From contig PS015559.1 of the NCBI GenBank assembly GCA_048213135.1, positions 1 to 52,798 on the forward strand: a DNA stretch of 52,798 nt. The letters run 5' to 3'. Numbering within the stretch: position 1 is the stretch's first letter; every line of letters starts with the position of its first letter. The position numbers were made by a program, and so were the translations under genes. The notes beneath the pieces were generated by a model that saw only the letters and a program-made list of their open reading frames with translations, made no database searches and was not told the DNA's origin. This stretch comes from Reclinomonas americana ATCC 50394 (lineage: Eukaryota). Shown one piece after another: positions 13,563-50,418 of the stretch.

Positions 13563-17781
<4,219 letters not shown>

Positions 17782-18964: not shown

Positions 18965-21900
18965 ATGAGCCCCTCTGCAACAACTCGACACTACACCCGC
19001 TTCACTGCGCCAACGCTTATTGTCGTGGCTGTGGCGCTGGTACTACTGCTGTGCACAGCCAGCGGTCATGAAGGTTCGAACTCGAACATCGCCACTCCCC
19101 ATACATGTCAAAGCGCTCGCTTTCCCGCTCTGTCTCCGTCTCTCTCTCTCTCCCACACACCCTCTCTTCACACGCATGCACACGCATCTGCCTCCTCCCA
19201 CTCTCCTCCTCTCCACCGACTCTTGACTATGCAAGATTCGACACTGTTGGTGGTGATGCTCATGCATGAATGCACACAGAGACCAGCAATGCCGCAGTGC
19301 ATACACTGCGCGCGCCCATGCCCTGCTTCGCCCCTGGCACACCAGAATCCAAGGTCATCGAGATGACCAAGTTTCTGGCGGAGCGCCACGCCGGCGGCTT
19401 CCACACCGACAACCAGCAATTTGACACACGTGCGGATGTGAGCACGTACCGGTGGACTACTACCGCCACCAACGGCTCCAACATTCCGCAAGGAAAGCGC
19501 ATCACGCTGACGTACTCATTTGTGCCTGGTATGTCAAATCACAGTGCACATTGCGACATGCATACTGTGGTGTCTCACTGAACTCCGCCCTCCGCGCAGA
19601 CGGCGTTTCTACGGGCGGTCAGACCAACGAGCTGTTTGCTCGTTTCAACGCGATGTACGGCTCGCCCGACGTGTGGCAGAAGGTCTTCCGGGAGGCCTTT
19701 GCCATGTGGTCGTCGAAAACGGCCGTGAATTATGTGTACGAGCCCAACGATGACGGCGCTGCGTGGCCGGGCACGGCTGGCAAGCTGGGCGTGCGCGGCG
19801 ACATCCGCATCGCTGCAGCAGTTGCGTCTCACGCCGCCCTCCTATCCGCGTACGACCATGTGTGCTCACTTTGGCGCTGCACAGTACATTGACGGCTCGG
19901 GCGGCACACTGGCCTACAACTACTACCCCACGAACGGTGACATGCTGATTGACAGCCAAGACGATTGGTTCGTCAGCAGCAGTGCCACGGCGCACAACTA
20001 TCGCGGACTGCGCAACTGCATCATGCACGAACACGGCCATGGACTGGGGTTGCGTGACTGTGTGATTGTCTTGGATCACTCTCCTCTCTTCTGTGCTTCT
20101 CACGCGTCGTCACGCATGGTCACGATGTGCAGACTCGGTCACGCGTGCCCAGCAGACGACACCAAGTTGATGGAGGTGTGTGCAACCTGAAGCCGTTCTT
20201 TTCTGCATGTCACCGGCTCATTGTCTCCCGTCCAGCCGTACATTTCCACGGCCTTTGACGGTCCTCAGTTGGACGACACACTTGGCGCGCAGCGGCAGTA
20301 CGGTGACCCGAATGGTGCGTCACGTAACCGCTGCGTCTCCACGCACGCACTGCGCTGCACTTCACACTCACTTGCTCTCTGGCTGCAGAGGACAACGACA
20401 CGCCCGCCACGGCCACCTCGCTCGGTGCGTTGGTGCGCAGCACAACACCGACTGTCATCACCGGCAGCATTGACGTGCCTGCCGACGTGGACTACTTCAA
20501 GTTCACCACGTTTGCGGAGCTGGCCACCATCCGCCTCTCGCCGCCGGGTGTCGCGCCGTATCTGTTCGCGGTGCAGAGCGGCTCGTGCCCGTCTGGATCG
20601 CCGTACGACCCGAACAATCATCTGAACCTCGGTTTCAGCGTGCTCGGACCCGATGGTGTCACGCAGCTGGCGCTGGTCAACGGCAACCCTGCCGGCACTG
20701 CTGAGTTGCTGACCGAGTTTTTGCTGCCTGGCGGTGGCGGACCGTACTACATTCGTGTGTTCACGGATCCCACTGTGGCCTCCGACATTCAGATGTACAC
20801 GCTGTCGTTGACGCTGTCTAACAGTTGCGTACGCAGTCTGTGTTGCACTCTACAGATTCTTCTGTGCTCACTGCAGTGCGGTTTGCATCACAGTCAACCA
20901 CTGTGTCGGTGTGACGTGCGCCACGGACAACTACTGCAATCCCGACACGGGCATGTGGTGCGTGCACACACACAGAGTGTAATAGCTGTTTCTTTGTGTT
21001 GATGGTTTCTCTTGTATCCCATCAGCTTGCCTTGCCAATGCATCAAGAACAACACGGTGCAATGCAGCGCCACTGGAGAGTGTCAGTGCAAGTTCGGATG
21101 GGAGGGCATCGACTGCGGCACGGTGACGACGGCGTTCTGCAAGAGCACCGCCAGTGGGTTGCAGGCGTACCTCAAGCTCGATGGCGATCTGACAGCGGCG
21201 GGCACGACCACGGTGTCGGGATCAGTTGCTGCACTCGGCACCGCCACGGCGCGCTACACGGCTGGGCGCTTTGGCCAGGCTGCTGCGTTCCGCAACGCCA
21301 AGGCATCGTCGGCAGCCACGGCCGACTGGGCCATCACGCTCGGCACAAATCTCGCCGATGCGTACCGGCTCGGTGGCGGGTTCACCGTATCGGCGTGGGT
21401 GCGCACCACGCTGACGGTAGACTCGGCCATTATCTCCAACAAGAGCTGGGACTCTGGTTCCAACACTGGTTGGGCGTTTAACTCCAAGAATGTCGCCTTT
21501 GCCAACGCTCGTGCCTCTGGCATGACCCGTGTCGACCTTGGTGCCGAGTCACGCGACGGCCAGTGGCATCACTTGGTGCTGACTGCTGACCGTGCGGCCA
21601 ATCTCGTGACGGCATACCGCGATGGCGTGAGTGTCGGCACTGGTGCGATCGGAACTGTCGGGACCGAGTGGCTTGACAGCACCAGCAACTACTCGACGTT
21701 CCTTGGCGCCGACGGTCGCGGATACTGGGGAACCAACGCCGACGTCGACGACTTTGCCGTGTGGTCACGTCCGCTTTCGGCCTCTGAGGTCTCGTGTCTG
21801 GCGCAGCAAGGAGCGCTTGGCAAGTCGTTGGAAGGTTTGTGCACGAGTTTGCTTGTCGATGTTCATCCACTCATTCGCTCACACATCGCCGTCTTCCACG

Positions 21901-24900
21901 TCACTTCATAGCCGCTGCTGGGCTGACTGGTGGCAGTTGCGTGCCGAAGTTGTGAGCCTTGTTCATACGTTCGTTTGTGTCTCACATTTGCAGCGTTGCG
22001 CAGCCAACACGTGTGCCAATTTGTCTTGCCCGACGAACTCGTACTGCAACGCCAACACCGTAACTTGGTACGTGTGATCGATGCATGCGTCGCACTTGGC
22101 CGCCACTGCAGCTGACTGTCGACTGTGCCACTTTCAGTGTTCCGTGCCAGTGCACGTTGGCAAACACGGCTTCGTGCTCGAGCACCGGCCAGNNNNNNNN
22201 NNNNNNNNNNNNTGTGTGTGCAAGGCTGGTTACGGCGGCATCGACTGCAGCCAGCCGACGTCGTGCTCTGTGGTGACATGTCCCGCCAACTCGTACTGCA
22301 ACTCGAGCACGATTACTTGGTGCGTTGTATTTGTGCAGTGCTTCGTGTGCCAATCACCTCGTTGACGTTGCTGACCATGGCGCAGCGTCCCGTGCCAGTG
22401 CAACTCGACCAACACGGCCTCATGCTCCAGTACCGGCCAATGTGTGTGCAAGACTGGTTATGGCGGCAGCGACTGCAGCCAGCCGACGTCGTGCTCTGTG
22501 GTGACGTGCCCGACCAACTCGTACTGCAACCCGACCACGTTTGCCTGCACCGCTTGCAACTGCGTGGCGGCCAACACGACCTCATGCTCCAGCACCGGTC
22601 AGTGCGTGTGCAAGACCGGCTTCGGCGGCGCCGATTGCAGCCAGTCGATCTCGTGCTCCACGATAACGTGCCCGACCAACTCGTACTGCAATCCGACCAC
22701 CATTTCGTGCACCGCTTGCAACTGCGTGGCGGCCAACACGGCGTCATGCTCCAGCACTGGTCAGTGTGTGTGCAAGACTGGCTTCGGCGGCGCCGACTGC
22801 AGCCAGCCAACGACGTGTTCTGTGGTGACGTGCACGACCAACTCGTACTGCAACCCGACTACCTTCGCCTGCACGACATGCAACTGCGTCGCCGCCAACA
22901 CGGCCTCATGCTCCAGCACTGGCCAGTGCATGTGCAAGACTGGCTACGGCGGCACCGATTGCAGCCAGCCGACGTCGTGCTCTGTGGTGGCGTGCCCGAC
23001 CAACTCGTACTGCAACCCGACACCTTTGCTTGCACGGCATGCAACTGCGTCGCCACCAATACTGCTTCGTGTTCCAGCGGCCAGTGTACCTGCAAGACTG
23101 GTTTCGGAGGCGCCGACTGCAGCCAGCCAACGACGTGTTCTGTGGTGACGTGCCCGACCAACTCGTACTGCAACCCGACTACCTTTGCTTGCACGGCATG
23201 CAACTGCGTTGCCGCCAACACGGCGTCATGCTCCAGCACTGGTCAGTGCGTGTGCAAGACTNNNNNNNNNNNNNNNNNNNNNNNNNNNNNNNNNNNNNNN
23301 NNNNNNNNNNNNNNNNNNNNNNNNNNNNNNNNNNNNNNNNNNNNNNNNNNNNNNNNNNNNNNNNNNNNNNNNNNNNNNNNNNNNNNNNNNNNNNNNNNNN
23401 NNNNNNNNNNNNNNNNNNNNNNNNNGTGTGCAAGCCTGGCTTCACTGGCTCCCGATGCGACACGGTGTCGACCGTCACGTGCCCGAGCGCAGGCACCGGC
23501 TTGCGTGCATACCTCAAGTTCGACGGCAACCTGGCCGCCGGCCCCACCACCACCCTGGCGGGCGCTATCGCTCCCAACGGCACTGGCTCTGCGCGATACA
23601 TTGCTGGCCCGTTCGGTCAGGCCGCCTCGTTCCGCAACACTGCCAGCTCCTCGAATTACGCCAACGACTGGGCGGTGACATTCGGCACCAGCTTGGCCTC
23701 GGTGTACCGCACCGAGGTGGCCGGCTTCACAGTGGGCGCGTGGGTTCGCACCACGTCCACCAACGACTCCACATTCTTCTCCAACAAGGACTGGTACTCG
23801 GGCGCGAATACCGGCTGGGTGTTCAGCACATCGTACGCCACATTCCTCAACTCTCGTGCCTCTGGCAAGTCGCGTATCGACATTGGTGCCGAGGTTCGCG
23901 ACGGACAGTGGCACTATGTTGTGGCAACATTCGACCGTGCGGCGAATCGCGTGACAGCGTACCGCGACGGCGTGAATGTGGGTACTGGTGCAATCGGCAG
24001 CACCGGCACCGAATGGCTGGACAGCACCAACAACTACTCGACCTTTATCGGTGCCGATGGTCGTGGTGTGTACGGCGCCATGGCCGATGTGGACGACTTT
24101 GCGGTGTGGGCTCGGCCGCTGACGGCGGCTGAGGTGTCGTGCCTGTACACTCAGGGCGCGGCGGGTCGGTCGCTGGAGAGTTTCGTAGCATTGCATGTTT
24201 TGCCTGCTTCACCGAATTGTTGGTGACTAACATCAATGTCGTTTCATCTTCTTCTTGTGTCCTCCAGTTGCTGCTGGCCTTGCAGCGCCAACCTGCTCGG
24301 GCATCACATGCCCCGCCAACACGTACTGCAGCGCGAGCACTGTGACTTGTGTGGCTTGCAACTGCGTCACCGCCAACACGACCTCGTGCTCCAGCACTGG
24401 TCAGTGCGTGTGCAAGGCTGGCTTCACCGGTGCACGATGCGACACGGTGTCGGCCATCACGTGCCCGAGCGCAGGCACCGGCTTGCGTGCATACCTCAAG
24501 TTCGACGGCAACCTGGCCGCCGGCCCCGCCACCACCCTGGCGGGCGCTATCGCTCCCAACGGCACTGGTTCCGCGCGATACATCGCTGGTCGGTTCGGTC
24601 AAGCCGCCTCGTTCCGCAACACTGCCAGCTATTCGAATTACGCCAACGACTGGGCAGTGACATTCGGCACCAGCTTGGCCCCGGTGTTCCGCACCGAAGT
24701 GGCCGGCTTCACCGTGGGCGCCTGGATTCGAACCACGTCCACCATTGATTCGGCGCTGTTCTCCAACAAGGACTGGTACTCTGGTGCGAATACTGGCTGG
24801 ATCTTCAGCACATCGTACGCCACATTCCTCAACTCTCGTGCCTCTGGCATGCCGCGTATCGACATTGGTGCCGAGGTTCGCGACGGACAGTGGCACTACG

Positions 24901-25181
24901 TTGTGGCGACATTCGACCGTGCGGCGAATCGCGTGACAGCGTACCGCGACGGCGTGAATGTGGGCACTGGTGCGATCGGCAACACCGGCACCGAGTGGCT
25001 GGACAGCACCAACAACTATTCGACTTTTATCGGTGCCGATGGTCGTGGTGTGTACAGCGCCTCGGCCGATGTGGACGACTTTGCGGTGTGGGCTCGGCCG
25101 CTGACGGCGGCTGAGGTGTCGTGCCTGTACACTCAGGGCGCGGCGGGTCGATCTCTCGAGGTCGCCGCTGGCTTGGTTTAA
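18965..25181 (+). CDS. Secreted metzincin (matrixin/M10-like) metalloprotease with a PPC-like domain, Cys-rich EGF-like repeats and three LamG-like jellyroll domains; apparent 1-bp frameshift near 23021
   Basis: Signal-like segment LIVVAVALVLLLCTASG. Zinc motif HEHGHGLG|LGH across an intron and Met-turn TKLME|P. PPC-like GSIDVPADVDYFKF...PYYIRV. Three LamG-like units carrying FTVxAWxRT, SNKxWxSGxNTGW, DGQWHxxVxTxDR and DVDDFAVWxRPL. Stop TAA at 25179-25181. Confidence 0.88.
22243..23261 (+). repeat. Coding tandem repeat with a 162-bp unit (54-aa Cys-rich EGF-like module)
   Basis: The unit start GA(C/T)TGCAGCCAG recurs at 22471, 22633 and 22795 and 22957 (162-bp spacing) and at 23115 (158 bp). 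Unit sequence: CSQPTSCSVVTCPTNSYCNPTTFACTACNCVAANTASCSSTGQCVCKTGFGGAD. Confidence 0.95.
23426..25160 (+). repeat. Near-identical internal duplication of an EGF+LamG module (about 750 bp, two copies, offset 982 bp)
   Basis: GCCCGAGCGCAGGCACCGGCTTGCGTGCATACCTCAAGTTCGACGGC occurs at 23481 and 24463. The two translations differ at only scattered residues. Confidence 0.95.
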
Positions 25182-25274
25182 CGAGATCGGCATGACCACG
25201 ATGTAAAAAGTGTAAAGACGACAGCAACTAATTGTTTCATGGAAGAATTATCATCTCCACAACATCGTACTCTG

Positions 25275-25946
25275 TCAGAGAGCGGAGACGTTGAACGCTT
25301 GCACCATGGCGTGGATGCCGGCGGCAAACGTCACGGACAAGCCCATGACATACGAGATGCTCCGCCACGGTTGCAACTGCAGCGCAAAAGCGAACGAGTG
25401 TGCAAAACGCGCGACAGTGAAGATGATGTAGTAGGCCACGTGCGCCGAAGCCGATGAGTCGGCGTTGCTGGTGATGTACAGCAGGATTGCGATGAGGAGG
25501 AAGATGGGGATGTTCTCCAGGTCGTTCCGATGCATCGCTTGAGCGCGGTCCACCTTTGACGAGATGCTGGCAGCGGGAGCCGCTCCACTGCCCACGCGAC
25601 CGTACGCGGTCGCCGGGTTCGAGTCGCCTCCACCGGGAACGAGAGCCTCGTTGCGAGTGGCCGTCGATGCATTGCGTGCGTCCTTCGCCAATGCATTCCT
25701 GGTGAGCAGGCTGCAGAGGAGTGCAAGGCAACGAAAGAGCGCAGACTCACCTCCGGTGCCGCTGGTCGTCCCTCAGAGCGACGAGCGACGCCCGTGTAGA
25801 TGCCGACGCCAAACATCTGCACACGAACTTTGTCAGGCAGACAGGGAGGCGCGTCACATGCACGCTGCGAGGCACAGTACCTTTACGAAGAGCAAGAAGG
25901 TGCACACGGTGAGCGTGCGGATGTCGAGTTGGATGTCGAATGTCAT
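25275..25946 (-). CDS. MAPEG family membrane protein (MGST1/PTGES-like), copy 1
   Basis: Spliced translation MTFDIQLDIRTLTVCTFLLFVK|MFGVGIYTG...VDRAQAMHRNDLENIPIFL...FTVARFAHSFAFALQLQPWRS, with four hydrophobic helices. Confidence 0.9.
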
Positions 25947-26168
25947 GTGTGGTGTGTGCGCTCTCTCACTTGGTGTTTATTGTTGTTTCTCGGAGTTCGA
26001 TGTCGGAACTTGTCTCGCACTGACTGCAGGGTCTCGGCGACGTTGCCAGAGACTGACCAAGGTCGTAGAATCGAGAGGTTTATGATATTAACTCGCGAGG
26101 AAGGTGAGAAGGCCGGCGCCACGCGCAAGTGCACGTGGCCATGGAGAGAGAGAGCGTTGCGGAGAAGT

Positions 26169-26899
26169 TCACGAGACAATGTTGAACACTTGCACGCAGA
26201 GCTGAATGGCAGCGGCAAACGACATGCCAACACCCGCCGCAAAGGCCACAGTGCGCCACGGCTGCAAGGCAAAGTGGTAGCACACCGAGTGCGCATACCG
26301 CGCCACTGTAAAGATGATAAAGTAGGCGACTTGCGCAGGTGCCGGGTTCGAATCCTCCCGGAAATCCAAGCCCACCAGGCTGCTCAGCACCAGCAACACG
26401 GCAATGATGAGGAAGATGGGGATGTTCTCCAGATCGTTTCTGAGGAGCATGCACAATGAGCACCTCCTGCATCGGAATAACTCTCTCTCTCTTCTCTGAC
26501 CTGTACATCGCCACTCCGCGCTCCACATACGACATGTCTGCGCCGCCGGCTGCGGGCGCACCTGCACCCCCAGTGGCATATGTCGTGGCGGCACCACCCT
26601 CGGCCGCCAGCAGCTGTGCATCACGGCGTCGGTCCTGCAAGAATGCATGCACATTGAGTTGTGATCATCATCGACACGTACACAGAGCACGTGCACGCGC
26701 TTCAGGTGCTGCTGGGCGGCCTTCCTTGCGTCGGTGGTAGGCGGTGTAGAAGCCAGTGGCCCACATCTGTGTGTGTGTATTCTTGTCAGATGCGTGTTGA
26801 TGCACAACGCACAACGCACACAGAGATGAGAGTGACCTTGAAGAAGAGGAAAAAGGTGCACAGGCCAAGTGTGCGCAGGGCCAGAGCGTAGTCGTACAT
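26169..26899 (-). CDS. MAPEG family membrane protein (MGST1/PTGES-like), copy 2
   Basis: Spliced translation MYDYALALRTLGLCTFFLFFK|MWATGFYTA...VERGVAMYR|NDLENIPIFL...FTVARYAHSVCYHFALQPWRT. Confidence 0.9.
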
Positions 26900-26981
26900 C
26901 GTCGTCGCTCGCTGCTTCCACAAAGTGTTTGTTGATTGATTGACCTTCTAATGTTTGTTGTTCATTTTTGTCACATTCCTC

Positions 26982-37153: not shown

Positions 37154-38327
37154 ATGGCCTCCTCGTCATCCTCGCCACCCTCGTCCCACGCAATGCCCGC
37201 AGCCGCGCACCGCATGCAGTGGCGAGTGCGCTCATCTGCACCACTGCGTCTGCGCACTCCTCCTGCTTCTGTGCCTGCTTCTGCTTCAGCTGCTGCACCA
37301 GTGGAAGAAAAGGAGTTGTCGTCGCCGGCGACAGTGCTGCCCATGCGTGACTCACCGCGACTGTCCTCGCTCACTCCGTCGTCGTCGGTGGGCTCGTCAT
37401 TGTCGTCGTATGGCATGCGAGGTGAGGCTTTTAAGTTTCCGAACAAATGCTAGACTGCTCTTCCTTGGCCTCGTTGTCTCGCTCTTTCTGTGCATATGAC
37501 GCTCCCTCCACCTCATTACTCACTCTTTCCTTGCCTTTTTTGTGTCTTTTTAAAAAGGATCTGCTTCGAGCGGGTCTCTGGCCGGTCGTGATCGCGAGGT
37601 GCTGACGGGTGTGGTGCCGGGGCAAATGTTTGGTGCCGAGGTCGCCGACGACTGTGTTGGCGACTGTGCGCTCATTGTGTTGCATGAGTTGCGTATCAAA
37701 CCAGCGTGCGGCACCTTTTCCTAGCAGGCCTTTAATTGTTTCTTCGTTGTCGTGGCAGTGCTCGTGGTTCCGACGATCATGTGGCGTCGTTGGCGCTGTT
37801 TTTCCACACCGCCTTGCAGTGTCGAGTGGTGGTGCCGGATCTGTTTCGTGGCGAGGTGCTGACAGATGCGCAGGTGCGTGTGTTTGCCTTTACCGCGGCT
37901 GTGCACGAGCTCACCTCGCGCGCGTGCACCACAGATCGCTCTTCGTATGCGCAACTTTGACTGGGAGGCGGCCATGGACGATGTGTATGCGGTGATTCAT
38001 GGCGTGCGGTGCCAGCGTGTTGCCATTGTCGGATTTGGGCTCGGCGGAGCGCTGGCTGTGTTGGCGGCCAGCCGGCCAGTGCCGGTGCTCAGTCCGTCGT
38101 CGTCGTTTCACGAGGCAGCAGCGCCTACCGCGACGACGATTGTGGCGTGTGCCACCATTGGCGGTATTCCACCGCGTAGCATGTGGAGTGCCACTGAGTT
38201 GGCGGTCGATGGCATCCAGGGGCACTTTGGCAACGACGACGAGACCACCGATGTGCGCGCGGCGGACGAATTCGAGACCCTGCTGGCCACCTCGCCGGTG
38301 CCCGACTGCACAGTGTGGCGGTACCCT
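37154..38327 (+). CDS. Dienelactone-hydrolase-family alpha/beta hydrolase region lacking the nucleophile Cys; possibly the N-terminal part of the next CDS
   Basis: Spliced translation ALIVLH|DARGSDDHVASLA...VVVPDLFRGE|...FDWEAAMDDV...RVAIVGFGLGGALA...IQGHFGNDD...VWRYP, which then enters a 20-N gap. Confidence 0.78.
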
Positions 38328-38387
38328 NNNNNNNNNNNNNNNNNNNNTGCGACTACACAGCGGGCTGTCACCGCCTCTGTGTGACAG

Positions 38388-40530
38388 CAATCCAGTGCTG
38401 CGATCCGGGTGGGGCTTCAAGGAGGGCGAGAAATGGACAGCGGTTGCGTCATCGTCATCGTCGTCGTCATCGTCGTCACTCGCTTGCTCGTCTCACTCTG
38501 ATGATGGTTTAGTGGAGGAGACGCTACTTTACCCTCCGTCTCACCGACCTGCGGTACGCTGCCAAGGCGGAGAGTGGCGACACGCGCGGCTGCATTCCCT
38601 CGTCATCCGTCCGCGCAGTCACGTGTGAAGACAGTCGGAAAGGGCGGCCGTGGGCCGTGTGCATACACACTGAGCGGCTCGACAAAGGTGAGTTGGAAAG
38701 AGATTGCTGGGGGTCTCACGCGAGCTGACGTGCTGCATGCAGGTCCACGGGAGTACTGGTTGACCTTTGAGTCGGAGAGCGAGTGGCGCGGGTGGCTGGT
38801 GGCGCTGACCGAGTGGAGAGTGACCTCGTCACAGTTCGAATACGGCAAGGGGGAGTCGCCGCTGGGAACCCTGGTGGCGTTTGGTGCGTGTGCCTCCCTT
38901 GCCCGTTTCCGTGCGCTTCGTGCGACTGTGACGACTCATTTTTTCGTTTGCATGCAGGCGCTGCCGGCTCCGGAGTGTCGACGTTGTGCAGTCACGCCAA
39001 GATGCTGTGGGGCGGTGGTCTGCTACCGGTGGAGGCGGAGCTGTTGGTCGAACTGTTTCGTGACTCGCGATTCTGCTCTCTCACCTCTCCTCCCGCCCTC
39101 TTCTCACTCCCCGTCTTGGCGCTGTGCAGAATTCGGAGCACAGCGACGTGCGTAGTCGAAGTGATGGCTTGCGTTCAAGAAGCTGTACTCACCCTCTCTG
39201 CCTGCAGGCATGGCATCGCGAGAATGCTGGAGGCGCATGAAGAGCTGCAGCTCTCCTTTGACAACCCCGCCAATGAGGTGTGTGTTTGTGCGCGTGTGCT
39301 CCTGACTGCGCGTCTCTCATGCTCAGCCACCCGTCGATGCCTCCAGGCGCAAGCACGACAAGTGCTGCAGGCGGTGTACGAGAATGAGCCGCTCTCGACG
39401 GAGCTGGCTACGGGTATCGAGCAACTCTTTGCCGACAGCTGTTGCGTGTCGAGTGGCTGTCAAAGAGCGATGCTTGTTTCCCCTCTCATATGTCTGTTAC
39501 AGCCATGCGGCTGGTGCGCGCACAACGAGACGAGTATGGCATCGACGATGGCACTCTGTAGTTGCGCCACCTCTGCCGTGCTCGTGCTACCCCGCTCTTC
39601 CCGCGCCAACGTTGTCTTCTCGATCTGCAGCTTCGTACAACAGGCGGCCAAGATTGCGGATCCACTGTTTGCCCCGACCTCCGCAGACATGGTGAGATGT
39701 TACCGCTGCACCGGCCAGACCACGTTGTTGAGCGGGAGATCGCCGTTGAGGTTGGTGAAGCGAGGCCAAATATTGTGAGGTACTGCGACTTACTGTGCTT
39801 GTGTGCAGATTACTCGAGAGCGGAGGGAGTCGGATGGAGCACGATTCATGGACAAAGTTGTCGAGCACGCTGGCCCGAGCAGACACTGTTATTCTGTTTC
39901 TCGTGGCCATGAGCGAGTTGCGTGCACTGTGCCACAAAAACAGTCAGGGTGTGTGCGATGCATGCTGACTGGCGTGAGCACAGGTTCGATCGACCTTCGT
40001 ACATGGACGACAGCATGCGACTCTTCGACGAGTGGGTGAACCAGGATCTCTCGTTTGCACGGTTTGTTCTCGCCACACACCTGACTTGTCGCGCCAAAGT
40101 GACTCACACACTGGCTGCCGCAGGCCGGTTCTACTGCTGCTAGTCAAATACGACAGGTTTCGTGAGCGTCTCGAGCAGGAGCCGGAGGCATTTGGCCGAG
40201 CGTTTCCCGAATTCAGACGTGCGTCTGCCTGTGCAATCCTCGTTGACTTTATTCTTTGCGTTCTACGGCTGACCTGTGAGCAGCACTGGCGGATGGCACG
40301 GATGCGACACAACAAGCCTGTCAGTACCTGGAGAACCAGTTCATGCATCTGAACAAGAATCCGGAGCGAGAGGTCCACGTGCGAATCATTTCGGCGACCA
40401 GTACGCCTCACGTCAGGTGCGTTGAGCCACCCTCTCTCTGGCGACCCACAAGTTTCTCATTTTTTTGCTGTCTGCACACAGAGACGCCATGAACGACGCC
40501 GTGGCCATGCTGAGAAGAGCTCAAAAGTAG
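38388..40530 (+). CDS. PH domain fused to a degenerate heterotrimeric G-protein alpha domain
   Basis: PH domain: LRSGWGFKEGEKWTA|WRRRYFTL...RGCIP...REYWLTFESESEWRGWLVAL. G-alpha domain: LVAFG|AAGSGVSTL, YFVQQAAKIADPLFAPTSADMVR, LLESGGSRMEHDSW, VILFLVAMSE|FD, MDDSMRLFDEWVN, PVLLLLVKYD, IISATS. Stop TAG at 40528-40530. Confidence 0.82.
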
Positions 40531-41234
40531 TAAATGTCTTCAGCAGCTGGTAGTCACGGTTGTCAGCTCTCCGTTTACGACAGCCAGGCAGGAGGTGCAC
40601 TTGCTCAAAAAATACACACAAACACCATGAACACACACAGTACAATCCTACTGTTGTGGAGGTGGACGGTGCAGTGCTAGTAGTNNNNNNNNNNNNNNNN
40701 NNNNNNNNNNNNNNNNNNNNNNNNNNNNNNNNNNNNNNNNNNNNNNNNNNNNNNNNNNNNNNNNNNNNNNNNNNNNNNNNNNNNNNNNNNNNNNNNNNNN
40801 NNNNNNNNNNNNNNNNNNNNNNNNNNNNNNNNNNNNNNNNNNNNNNNNNNNNNNNNNNNNNNNNNNNNNNNNNNNNNNNNNNNNNNNNNNNNNNNNNNNN
40901 NNNNNNNNNNNNNNNNNNNNNNNNNNNNNNNNNNNNNNNNNNNNNNNNNNNNNNNNNNNNNNNNNNNNNNNNNNNNNNNNNNNNNNNNNNNNNNNNNNNN
41001 NNNNNNNNNNNNNNNNNNNNNNNNNNNNNNNNNNNNNNNNNNNNNNNNNNNNNNNNNNNNNNNNNNNNNNNNNNNNNNNNNNNNNNNNNNNNNNNNNNNN
41101 NNNNNNNNNNNNNNNNNNNNNNNNNNNNNNNNNNNNNNNNNNNNNNNNNNNNNNNNNNNNNNNNNNNNNNNNNNNNNNNNNNNNNNNNNNNNNNNNNNNN
41201 NNNNNNNNNNNNNNNNNNNNNNNNNNNNNNNNNN

Positions 41235-47589: not shown

Positions 47590-50204
47590 ATGGAGCTGCT
47601 GAGCGCCAACGCCATCAAAAACCTCTCGGAAAAGATCCCCGAGAAGCGCAAGCAGGGCGCGCTCGAGGTCGATCAACTCGTCAGACAGGTGACACTCTGC
47701 CGTGTTCCTCTGTCTCTCTCTCTCTATCTGTGTGTGCGCACCCCACTCACTGCGCTCCTTGTCCCCATCATCCACTCAGATCCGACAACGAAACGAGCAA
47801 CAACGACGCATTCCCGAGCTGACCTCGGGACTCACCAAAGAGTTTGTCAACTCGGTCCAACCAAACTCGCGCAAGGGCGGTCTGGTCGCGCTGGCTGCTG
47901 TCGCTGTGGCACTCTTGCAGGTGTGCACGGACAGGAAGAGAGCAAGGGGGCAGGAGAGAGAGCGAACGAGCATTGCCAAACATGGCCACTCTTCTGTGAC
48001 CACTCACGCTCACCCCGTGTGCGTGTGTGTGCAGGATGTGCACGAGTTCCTGGATACACTGGTGCCGCCGATTTTGCAGTGCCTGGGCGATCAGGACAGC
48101 AAAGTGCGATTTCATGCATCCGAGGCACTGTACAATGTGGCCAAGGTCGCTCGTGGAAGCATGCTGCGGTACTTTGCCGAGATCTTTGATGGCCTCTGCA
48201 GAGTTGAGTCCTCTCTCGCTTTTCCTCTCGTTTCCGTCGCTCACCACCTTTCCCCAACGCCGCAGCTGAGCGCCGATCCCGATGCACAAGTGAAATCCGG
48301 GTGTGAGCTGCTGGATCGCCTCATCAAGGACATTGTGGCGGAGAGCGAAAAGTTTGACACGCGCACCTTTGTGCAGCTGCTGCGCGATCGCATCATGGCC
48401 ACGAATGCGTTTGTGCGCCAGTTTCTCGTGTCGTGGATCTCGGTGCTGAATTCGATCCCCGACACGTCGCTGGTGCCGTACCTGCCCGAGTTCCTCGACG
48501 GTCTGTTCCGCATGCTCAGCGACCCACACGAGGAGATCCGCACGCAAGCCGACACCACTCTCGGCGAATTCCTGCGGGAGATGAAGCAGGAGACCACCAA
48601 TTATCCGGCCCTGGTCGACATTGTGATTGTGCACTCGGGCAGCAAGGACGACTTCACGTGCCTCACCGCCCTCAACTGGGCGCACGAATTCCTCGCCGAG
48701 GCCGGTCAGGTGCTGCTGCCCCACGCGGCCGCCGTGTTGGGTGCCGTGTTGCCGTGCATCTCACACAGGCAAGAGAGTTGCGTTCACTTGTTCTGTTTGT
48801 CTCCCTGGGGATCGCGGGCTCACGCATCGCGCGATGCAGATATCCGGCAGATTGCGTCGCGCATCAACATTAGCATTCAGACGCTGGTGAACGGCGCCTC
48901 GAGTTCCTTTGATCTGGCCGCCATTCTGCAAGTGGTGGCCGTCGAACTGGTGAAGCACTTTGTGCCAACACGCGTGGCCGCCCTCAACTGGATCATCATG
49001 CTGTTCCGCAAGGATCCCGATGCCACGCTGGCGCACATTGATGAGCTGTTCCCGCTGCTGCTAAAGACGCTGTCGGATCGGTCAGACAAGGTCATTTCGC
49101 TGGACTTGGAGGTGCTGGCCCGCTTCTCGGCCAACGAGGATATCTTCCAGCGCTTCATGACCTCGCTGCTGGAGCTGTTCTCCACCGACCAGGAGCTGCT
49201 GAACAAGGCCGGCTTCATCATTCGCACGCTGAGCATGATGCTCTCACCACCTTCGATCTACTCGGCGCTGGCACAGAATTTGGAGCGAGAAAAGGTGCGC
49301 TTTTTTGTTGTGTGCGGGTGCATGGCCCGCCTACTCAAATCTCATGTGCACATGTGGCAGGACATTGAGTTTGCCAGCACCATGGTGCAAACACTGAACA
49401 TGATTCTGCTGACCGCACAAGAGCTGAGTCAACTGCGCAACGCCATTCGACGAGCACCAGTGGATGAGGAGGTGAGAGTGTGATCAAGCAGTGTGGATGG
49501 CATCGAGTTGCTTACAAGAACGGCGCCTGCAGGGTCGCAAGCTGTTTACCACATTGTACCCGTCGTGGTGCAACAACCCAGTGGCCACGCTCAGCCTCTG
49601 CCTCCTGTCGCAGTCGTACGAGCACGCCAGCAATCTCATTTCACGGTTTGCCGAGTGCGAAATCACCGTCAGTTTCTTGGTACAAGTCGACAAGCTGGTG
49701 CAGTTGCTGGAGTCGCCGATTTTCTCCTGTGCGTCCTTACTCCCGTCGTACTGCTTGTTTCCGTCCGTCCTCACTCTCCTGTGCAGATTTGAGACTGCAG
49801 CTGCTCGAGCCGGCCAAGTGTCCACATTTGCTCAAGACCCTGTACGGCATCCTCATGTTGCTGCCGCAGAGCTCCGCCTACGACACGCTGAAGAACCGCC
49901 TGAAGAGTGTCTCCACCCTCTCTATTCTACAAATGCACACCGTGGCGACACCACCGTTGCGTCTGCTGCGGTGTGCGCGCTGGGAGAGATGGAGGAGGGC
50001 ATTGATACTCACTGCGTGTGCGGTTATCCCAGTAGCTCGGCGTCGACTGCGAGTGCCTCCGCACACGGCTCGGCCATTGATTTTGACGAACTCATGCGAT
50101 CATTCGAGGCCACGCAGACGCGACACCAGGAGACCAGGCAACAATTACTGCAGCAGGCGGCAGCCAGTGGTGCACACGTGGTGTCCCTGGAGATGCCCAA
50201 GTGA
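47590..50204 (+). CDS. VAC14: VAC14, HEAT-repeat scaffold of the Fab1/PIKfyve-Fig4 complex
   Basis: [109 protein letters not shown]. Confidence 0.96.
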
Positions 50205-50418
50205 CAATGATGGCTGTGGAATGAATGGGTGTGCACGAGTGGATTCGGGCGACTGGCGTCAATAATACAGCAGAACACACTCACACTGAAGGCAAGGGAG
50301 GAGGGCGAGTAACACAGTATTTTTCGAGGCGCTTACAATTTCCGTACACAAGCACGCCTCCGTTCACGATCCGCACACCCGCCGGCGAGGGGTCATTGGA
50401 CTACTACAGTTTGTGTGG

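Follow-up and report, generated by a model that had tools for sequence, protein, structure and literature searches.

An in-frame fusion of a PH domain and a degenerate G-alpha-like domain predicted in Reclinomonas americana

What becomes of a G-alpha subunit when a PH domain stands in the place of its lipid anchor and the residues of its nucleotide site have degenerated? The question is raised by a predicted gene at positions 38388-40530 of contig PS015559.1 from Reclinomonas americana ATCC 50394 (assembly GCA_048213135.1). This contig was analysed on the forward strand from position 1 to 52,798, and the whole stretch of 52,798 nucleotides is called the window here. As a rule, a G-alpha subunit is a switch that stands alone and is anchored by lipid. 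An earlier note, made from the letters of the sequence, had described the locus as a complete PH domain spliced to a G-alpha fold with degenerate motifs and had proposed a pseudo-GTPase (GTP, guanosine triphosphate) acting as a scaffold or decoy. We find an in-frame fusion of a PH domain and a G-alpha-like domain from which catalytic residues have been lost. Its product may be a PH-anchored adaptor working without a GTPase cycle.

A PH domain and a G-alpha-like domain in one frame

The fusion can be read from a single exon. Exon 3 (38743-38883; this and all other exons are on the + strand) encodes in one uninterrupted frame the C-terminal helix of the PH domain with its conserved tryptophan, a linker of about 16 amino acids and strand beta1 of the G-alpha-like domain (TLVAF), and it ends at the first base of the P-loop glycine codon. 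There is neither a stop codon nor an ATG between the domains. Because this exon alone encodes both the PH helix and beta1, the fusion is independent of any intron call. When the 13 predicted exons are spliced by coordinates, they give an open frame of 449 amino acids which has no internal stop and is closed by TAG at 40528-40530. It might be argued that the two parts are adjacent genes or a misassembled join, as the draft assembly is gapped and the gene model is a prediction without transcript support. Such an artefact is very unlikely, since the sequence from 38348 to 40684 is continuous and free of N and since one frame carries the last part of the PH domain together with beta1. The in-frame fusion proposed in the earlier note is thus upheld, and the same is true of its coordinates, which extend from the base directly behind a CAG acceptor to the TAG stop.

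All searches of Pfam, PDB and AlphaFold were made with contiguous translations, never with joined exons. The core of the PH domain (WRRRYFTL to ERLDK) is encoded by exon 2 (38513-38687), which by itself matched the Pfam PH family (PF00169) over profile positions 18-75 of 105 with E=1.2e-4 and 23.0 bits, the cut-off being 25.1 bits. In the PDB (E<=10) seven of its nine matches were PH domains, among them those of ARHGAP25, RIAM and GRP1/cytohesin-3; the other two were unrelated. Strand beta1 with its G-W-x-x-K pattern (GWGFKEGEKW) is encoded by exon 1 (38388-38442) and the Trp-bearing C-terminal helix by exon 3, and both were recognised by inspection. The PH domain which the earlier note called complete is supported by Pfam and PDB for its core, and by inspection for its two ends. 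In the 449-amino-acid model the landmarks GWGFKEG, WRRRYF and EWRGW stand at residues 7, 19 and 90. The reading from beta1 to beta2 is restored only by the splice of the 70-nt GT-AG intron between exons 1 and 2. This intron (38443-38512, +) carries a (GTC/ATC)n run, which the frame of exon 1 would read as poly-serine.

The beta1-beta2 segment, K-EGEKWTAW-RRR-YF, fits the phosphoinositide motif KXn(K/R)XR. In the source cited this motif ranks first among the determinants of headgroup contact, yet it fails to separate binders from non-binders (PMC8282632). For this reason lipid binding by the PH domain can be called plausible and no more.

The G-alpha similarity is weak in each part and consistent as a whole. 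Nine pieces of the locus were compared with Pfam: four matched the G-alpha family (PF00503), one matched PH and four gave nothing relevant. The four G-alpha pieces covered profile positions 69-167 (E=0.039, 13.5 bits), 184-226 (E=0.018, 14.6 bits), 252-293 (E=0.032, 13.8 bits) and 284-325 (E=0.0047, 16.6 bits) of 333. They lie on the same strand and are collinear with the profile. Each score is below the gathering cut-off of 48.8 bits, and their simple sum is about 58 bits. The E-values refer to the whole library of 24,736 models. Because the family was fixed beforehand, the chance per piece is approximately E/24736, and four such pieces in order would not be expected by chance. The earlier note had let its claim hang on the presence of a G-alpha hit; here there are four, weak and collinear. 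Unrelated weak matches at the locus were PCSK9_C1 (0.14), Tle3_C (0.061) and YdgV (0.016). Among ten exon-only pieces two matched G-alpha, namely exon 11 (E=0.022, profile 252-279) and exon 12 (E=0.0066, profile 284-319); six matched nothing and two were unrelated (E=0.13). Exon 9 alone had no match in Pfam or the PDB, and exon 10 alone had no Pfam family match.

Structures gave a mixed picture. All 36 PDB matches of exon 12 (E<=10) were G-alpha chains, the best being 3c7k_A, a G(o) (E=0.17). Its ISATST aligned with the TCATDT G5 box of G(o), and the G5 region also aligned with chains of G(t), G(z) and G(i). No PDB match was obtained with a 335-amino-acid frame (38771-39778), with the exon 9 region or with exon 6, whereas exon 11 gave one and exon 8 two matches, all unrelated. 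In the ESM Atlas the N-terminal half came closest to G-alpha clusters, with scores of 0.86, 0.86 and 0.85, values below 0.9 being a lead only according to the tool. An AlphaFold model of the contiguous frame 38960-39772, which was computed with translated introns inside and no alignment, had a mean pLDDT (predicted local distance difference test) of 34.9 and was unusable.

The boxes G1 to G5 are all present, in the order of G-alpha and at nearly its spacing. In the 449-amino-acid model GAAGSGVST stands at residue 124, RCYRCTG (within VRCYRCTG) at 277, ESGGS at 298, VKYD at 365 and SATST at 426. The resulting spacing is 152/16/67/62/22 residues, the last figure being the tail after G5. The corresponding figures for G-alpha-i1 are 135/19/69/57/28. 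G-alpha is set apart from small GTPases by an insert of roughly 130-150 amino acids between G1 and switch I, and the insert found here (152 residues, or 126 in the short splice model) has, by sequence, the size of a helical domain.

The exons follow this plan. The P-loop and helix alpha1 are encoded by exon 4 (38958-39054), and the helical domain begins in exon 5 (39130-39277), which lies within the stretch matching Pfam G-alpha positions 69-167. It continues through exon 6 (39347-39440; ELATGIEQLFADS) and exon 7 (39503-39557; RDEYGIDDG), which is too short for a single-exon search. Exon 8 (39631-39750) carries linker 2 and switch I. Exon 9 (39809-39919), whose surrounding frame is the piece with E=0.018, carries G3 and switch II. 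They are followed by the helix alpha3 region in exon 10 (39984-40061; DDSMRLFDEW), strand beta5 and G4 in exon 11 (40124-40218; LLLLVKYD), helix alpha4, strand beta6 and G5 in exon 12 (40284-40416), and a short helix alpha5 with the stop codon in exon 13 (40482-40530). Judged by similarity, order and spacing, this part appears to be a G-alpha-type domain, i.e. a Ras-like core with an inserted helical domain, complete but very divergent.

The four strings quoted in the earlier note (GAAGSGVST, VRCYRCTG, ESGGS and VKYD) occur in the spliced translation in this order, and the losses it named, of the P-loop Lys, the switch I catalytic Arg and the G3 catalytic Gln, could be read there as well. In the P-loop Lys is replaced by Val and Ser-Thr is kept. 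In switch I the catalytic Arg is out of register, so that Tyr or Cys takes its position depending on a one-residue gap; the Thr is kept. G3 has Ser for the catalytic Gln and Glu for Asp and keeps its GG, whereas G4 has Val for Asn and keeps Lys and Asp. The Ala of G5 (SAT) is kept, as are both Ser/Thr positions that serve as Mg ligands. Consensus motifs and residue roles were taken from the XLG2 preprint (10.1101/795088), which is also the source of part of the canonical numbering. With this set of changes it is almost certain that the domain does not work as a GTPase.

The termini have changed too. An alphaN helix is absent, the distance from the PH helix to beta1 being the roughly 16 residues of exon 3. 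No lipidation site is visible in the part of the protein that follows the gap at 38328-38347, which hides the true N-terminus. The tail after G5 is shortened, as described above. Because of the missing alphaN helix and the short tail, the protein is unlikely to be lipid-anchored or coupled to receptors in the canonical way.

Gene or relic, and a possible function

The coding signal of the spliced frame was assessed with a codon table made from nine other open reading frames (ORFs) of the window. It scored +0.106 bits/codon, against -0.30 and -0.29 in the wrong frames. Its G+C content at the three codon positions was 0.61/0.47/0.71, the third-position value of the reference ORFs being 0.60-0.79, and the introns showed no periodicity. 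A gene on the opposite strand was considered and rejected, the four reverse-strand ORFs at the locus having no Pfam match. The intactness of about 449 codons over 12 well-phased junctions argues for a maintained coding capacity. As far as composition and phasing tell, the locus is a real, intron-rich eukaryotic gene.

Relatives were sought in several ways. A word-index search of 5.8 billion proteins found none with the 335-amino-acid frame, and none with exon 12 at 'longer' lengths. HMMER likewise returned nothing at E<=0.001 among 1.84 billion representatives for the 335-amino-acid frame, a query whose power was lowered by the translated introns it contains. A metagenome scan with exon 8 led to a single locus, L001, on a bacterial or phage-like contig; it was a chance match on one peptide and was discarded. 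As to transcripts, a search for sequencing runs listed no RNA run.

It might be thought that the locus is a relic, that is, a decaying or unexpressed G-alpha paralogue without present function. Its divergence from all G-alpha proteins is extreme, the catalytic residues are gone, relatives were not found, and the codon score is lower than that of most reference ORFs (0.12-0.41, the references scoring themselves). However, the frame has remained open over 13 exons with correct splice phases at 12 of 12 junctions, and third-position G+C and frame-specific codon bias have been retained. Unconstrained sequence of this divergence should carry stops or frameshifts. A relic is therefore improbable in our judgement.

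The reading towards which we incline, with modest confidence, is that the gene encodes an adaptor, G-alpha-like but GTPase-dead and anchored by its PH domain, for which plant XLG2 offers an analogue. The PH domain, standing in place of the lipidated alphaN helix, would draw the protein to membranes bearing phosphoinositides. There the G-alpha-like domain, having no GTPase cycle, would serve as a nucleotide-independent or at most nucleotide-locked module for binding partners of the G-protein pathway. The logic would be that of the 'decoy G-alpha' XLG2. Several observations weigh against this reading. The gene model has two ambiguous exon junctions and one GC donor; each G-alpha match by itself is weak (13.5-16.6 bits, the cut-off being 48.8); and five of the six PDB queries from the G-alpha part returned no G-alpha. 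The start codon and the N-terminus are missing. No homologue was found in the searches described above. Moreover, the kept Lys and Asp of G4, Ala of G5, GG of G3 and Ser/Thr ligands of Mg would fit residual nucleotide binding better than an empty pocket.

This last point is the starting point of another explanation, in which the domain binds guanine nucleotide and cannot hydrolyse it, so that the protein would be GTP-locked and constitutively 'on'. The retained Lys and Asp of VKYD, Ala of SAT, GG of G3, Ser-Thr of the P-loop and Thr of switch I would suit such a protein, as would the loss of the catalytic Arg and Gln. Against it stands the P-loop Lys, which contacts the beta and gamma phosphates and is Val here. 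In the XLG2 preprint as cited, the equivalent Lys-to-Ala change goes together with a 100-1000-fold weaker binding of GTP-gamma-S, there being other changes in XLG2 besides. On balance we regard a GTP-locked signal protein as rather unlikely. The pseudo-GTPase scaffold or decoy of the earlier note is supported in part: its architecture and its lost catalytic residues were seen here, its role as a scaffold or decoy is a conjecture, and the retained residues may allow some nucleotide binding. Equally doubtful is a more specific form of the adaptor idea, according to which an XLG-like 'decoy G-alpha' arose independently outside plants. Such a protein, with its PH domain perhaps preceded by a dead hydrolase-like domain, would be nucleotide-free, would be recruited by phosphoinositides and would sequester or scaffold G-beta-gamma or RGS proteins. 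If this were true, lipid signalling would be tied directly to the availability of heterotrimeric G proteins. In the adaptor reading itself, the exchange of the alphaN helix for a PH domain would be a second, independent route to a nucleotide-independent G-alpha and a direct path from phosphoinositides to G-protein signalling. For now the value of the PH-anchored adaptor reading is limited by the nature of the gene, an orphan which is known from its sequence and lacks its 5' end.

Gene model, 5' end and surroundings

Splice junctions were chosen so as to hold intron lengths within 55-75 nt. The 12 introns measure, in order, 70, 55, 74, 75, 69, 62, 73, 58, 64, 62, 65 and 65 nt. Eleven are of the GT-AG type and one is GC-AG (donor 39920); eleven acceptors read CAG and one, that of intron 1, TAG. 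Several introns contain a CTGAC-like motif, which by inspection was taken as the branch site. Other splice models give 432, 458 or 483 amino acids. The donor of exon 4 is ambiguous, 39055 being preferred, and the intron before exon 5 is then 75 nt long. If exon 5 began at 39208 instead of 39130, the protein would be 26 amino acids shorter. If exon 8 ended at 39774 instead of 39750, where it has the donor GTTGGT and a 58-nt intron, the protein would be 8 amino acids longer and the intron would shrink to 34 nt. Between exons 9 and 10 the GC-AG intron is the sole option of normal size that keeps the frame, the GT alternative being 31 nt. None of these choices affects any of the motifs quoted.

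Introns 3, 8 and 11 presumably match introns 1, 5 and 7 of animal GNAI genes in position and phase, which is a lead only. The exon lengths of GNAI are 118/43/142/158/129/130/154. Intron 3 is in phase 1 within the first P-loop Gly codon, intron 8 is in phase 2 and precedes the acidic residue of G3 by three codons, and intron 11 is in phase 1 in the codon directly after FPEFR. According to the source cited, G-alpha families have exon borders and split codons in common (PMC5896119).

The 5' end of the gene is incomplete in the assembly. Exon 1 has no ATG, and 38388 is the first base after CAG at 38385-38387. The 40 bases before it (38348-38387, +) may be an intron tail ending in this CAG or may be coding, as the PH frame is open, without ATG, up to an assembly gap of 20 N at 38328-38347. 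Beyond this gap, on the same strand, lies a region resembling dienelactone hydrolase (DLH). It extends from an ATG at 37154 to 38327, where it runs into the gap, and its transition to the PH exons is concealed there. By inspection its exons are at about 37154-37421, 37554-37690, 37736-37880 and 37935-38327, with one frame per piece showing a coding-like codon score. The stretch 37863-38327 matched Pfam DLH with E=2.1e-5 over profile positions 91-173 of 217. The nucleophile elbow reads GFGLGG, whereas active members of this family have Cys or Ser as the third residue of the motif, and the domain, too, may lack catalytic activity. The His region and the rest of its C-terminal part fall into the gap.

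In view of these features it is possible that a larger gene starts at ATG 37154 and has the PH and G-alpha-like exons at its 3' end. The product would be a three-domain pseudo-enzyme scaffold with a Ser-rich N-terminus and a hydrolase-like domain, whose nucleophile is apparently Gly, followed by the PH and G-alpha-like domains. The hydrolase-like region shares the strand of these exons, bears a coding-like signal and runs up to the gap, which begins 60 bases before exon 1, and exon 1 itself begins at an acceptor or stays open to the gap. Like one other in the scaffold, this gap has the minimal size of 20 N. Its flanks align weakly at the gap edges, with a local score of 12 that was reached by 5% of 3000 control pairs, and it may be very small. 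If it really is, the outcome would be a protein with hydrolase-like, PH and G-alpha-like parts, because a stop codon, a promoter, another first exon and the intergenic space around them would hardly fit in. On the other hand, about 34 last positions of the DLH profile, the catalytic His region included, are unaccounted for. No Pfam match was obtained with two frames after the gap (the PH frame and the frame from 38348), nor with the last 44 amino acids of one frame before it other than the DLH frame. The run of 20 N need not reflect the true size of the gap, and the flank alignment is marginal (P ~0.05). The hydrolase-like ORF, used as query in the word-index search at 'longer' lengths, found no homologue and hence none with that architecture. 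We hold the larger gene as a tentative alternative, to be taken seriously without being favoured. In either case the earlier note was right about the 3' end of the gene and missed the truncation of its 5' end by the gap and the possible hydrolase-like continuation upstream.

The surroundings of the PH/G-alpha-like gene are ordinary eukaryotic genes. The scaffold is a gapped eukaryotic draft with 11 N runs, of which the nine other than the minimal ones measure 164-885 N; outside the gaps it has about 60% G+C, and its genes are split by many short introns. In the window 240 of the 247 stop-to-stop ORFs of at least 100 amino acids were scanned with Pfam, the remaining seven being those of this locus, which were scanned separately. 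The neighbours so identified include propionyl-CoA carboxylase, a SET-domain protein, an ATP-grasp ligase, an NADPH-oxidase-type FAD domain, a matrixin, a laminin-G/EGF gene array, two MAPEG genes, MFAP1, an aquaporin, glycerol-3-phosphate dehydrogenase, VAC14 and LMBR1. None of these 240 ORFs revealed a further G-alpha, PH, RGS or G-beta gene.

Some of the neighbouring features deserve mention in their own right. At 20300-25200 (+) there are tandem, very similar ORFs with laminin-type EGF repeats and Laminin_G_3 (three LamG matches, E 1e-16 to 1e-18). This array contains two assembly gaps and follows a matrixin-like ORF (19729-20187). Both flanks of a 591-N gap (16683-17273) are occupied by long (CT)n/(GA)n microsatellites at 16300-17500. 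The two MAPEG-family ORFs are adjacent at 25278-26981 (-) and are probably a tandem duplicate. The VAC14 gene is located at 47693-50262 (+), 7 kb downstream of the PH gene. VAC14 is the scaffold of the complex that synthesises PI(3,5)P2, and there is no sign of a functional link between the two genes.

Comparison with known systems

With canonical G-alpha (PF00503) the protein shares the order of G1 to G5, a similar spacing, an insert of helical-domain size and the alignment at G5. It differs in having a PH domain in place of alphaN and the lipidation site, in the loss of the P-loop Lys, the Arg, the Gln and the Asn of G4, and in its shorter tail. Its similarity is also too low to reach E<=0.001 among the 1.84 billion representatives. 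Other proteins, such as dynamin and AGAP/PIKE, combine a PH domain and a GTPase-type domain in one chain for a membrane-coupled function. Their GTPase is of the dynamin or Ras-like type, not of the G-alpha type, and domain order and catalytic competence differ from those of the present protein.

The closest parallel in design is found in plants. To our knowledge a G-alpha-like domain that follows a large extra N-terminus and lacks working nucleotide motifs has been studied well only in the plant XLG proteins. An architecture of PH and G-alpha was not found in the literature searched, which included parts of PMC3971589, PMC12716839 and PMC9283941, and a prior description elsewhere is possible. 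As described in the preprint text cited, XLG2 is without the P-loop Lys, the arginine finger and the catalytic Gln and binds GTP-gamma-S 100-1000 times more weakly, yet still binds G-beta-gamma and RGS1 (10.1101/795088). It has been proposed there to be a nucleotide-independent decoy, and XLGs are described as unique to plants. Like XLG1-3, the present protein has a G-alpha-homology domain behind an N-terminal extension unrelated to G-alpha, and like XLG2 it is without the Lys, the Arg and the Gln. The extension is different in kind, XLGs having a Cys-rich N-terminal half and the present protein a PH domain. The remains of the nucleotide site differ as well: XLG2 has lost DVGG, which reads RLNP, and the Ala of G5, whereas ESGG and SAT are kept here. 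The homologue searches reported above revealed no sequence link to XLGs. The protein may thus be regarded as an analogue of the XLGs rather than as a member of their family, and the resemblance between them would be convergent.

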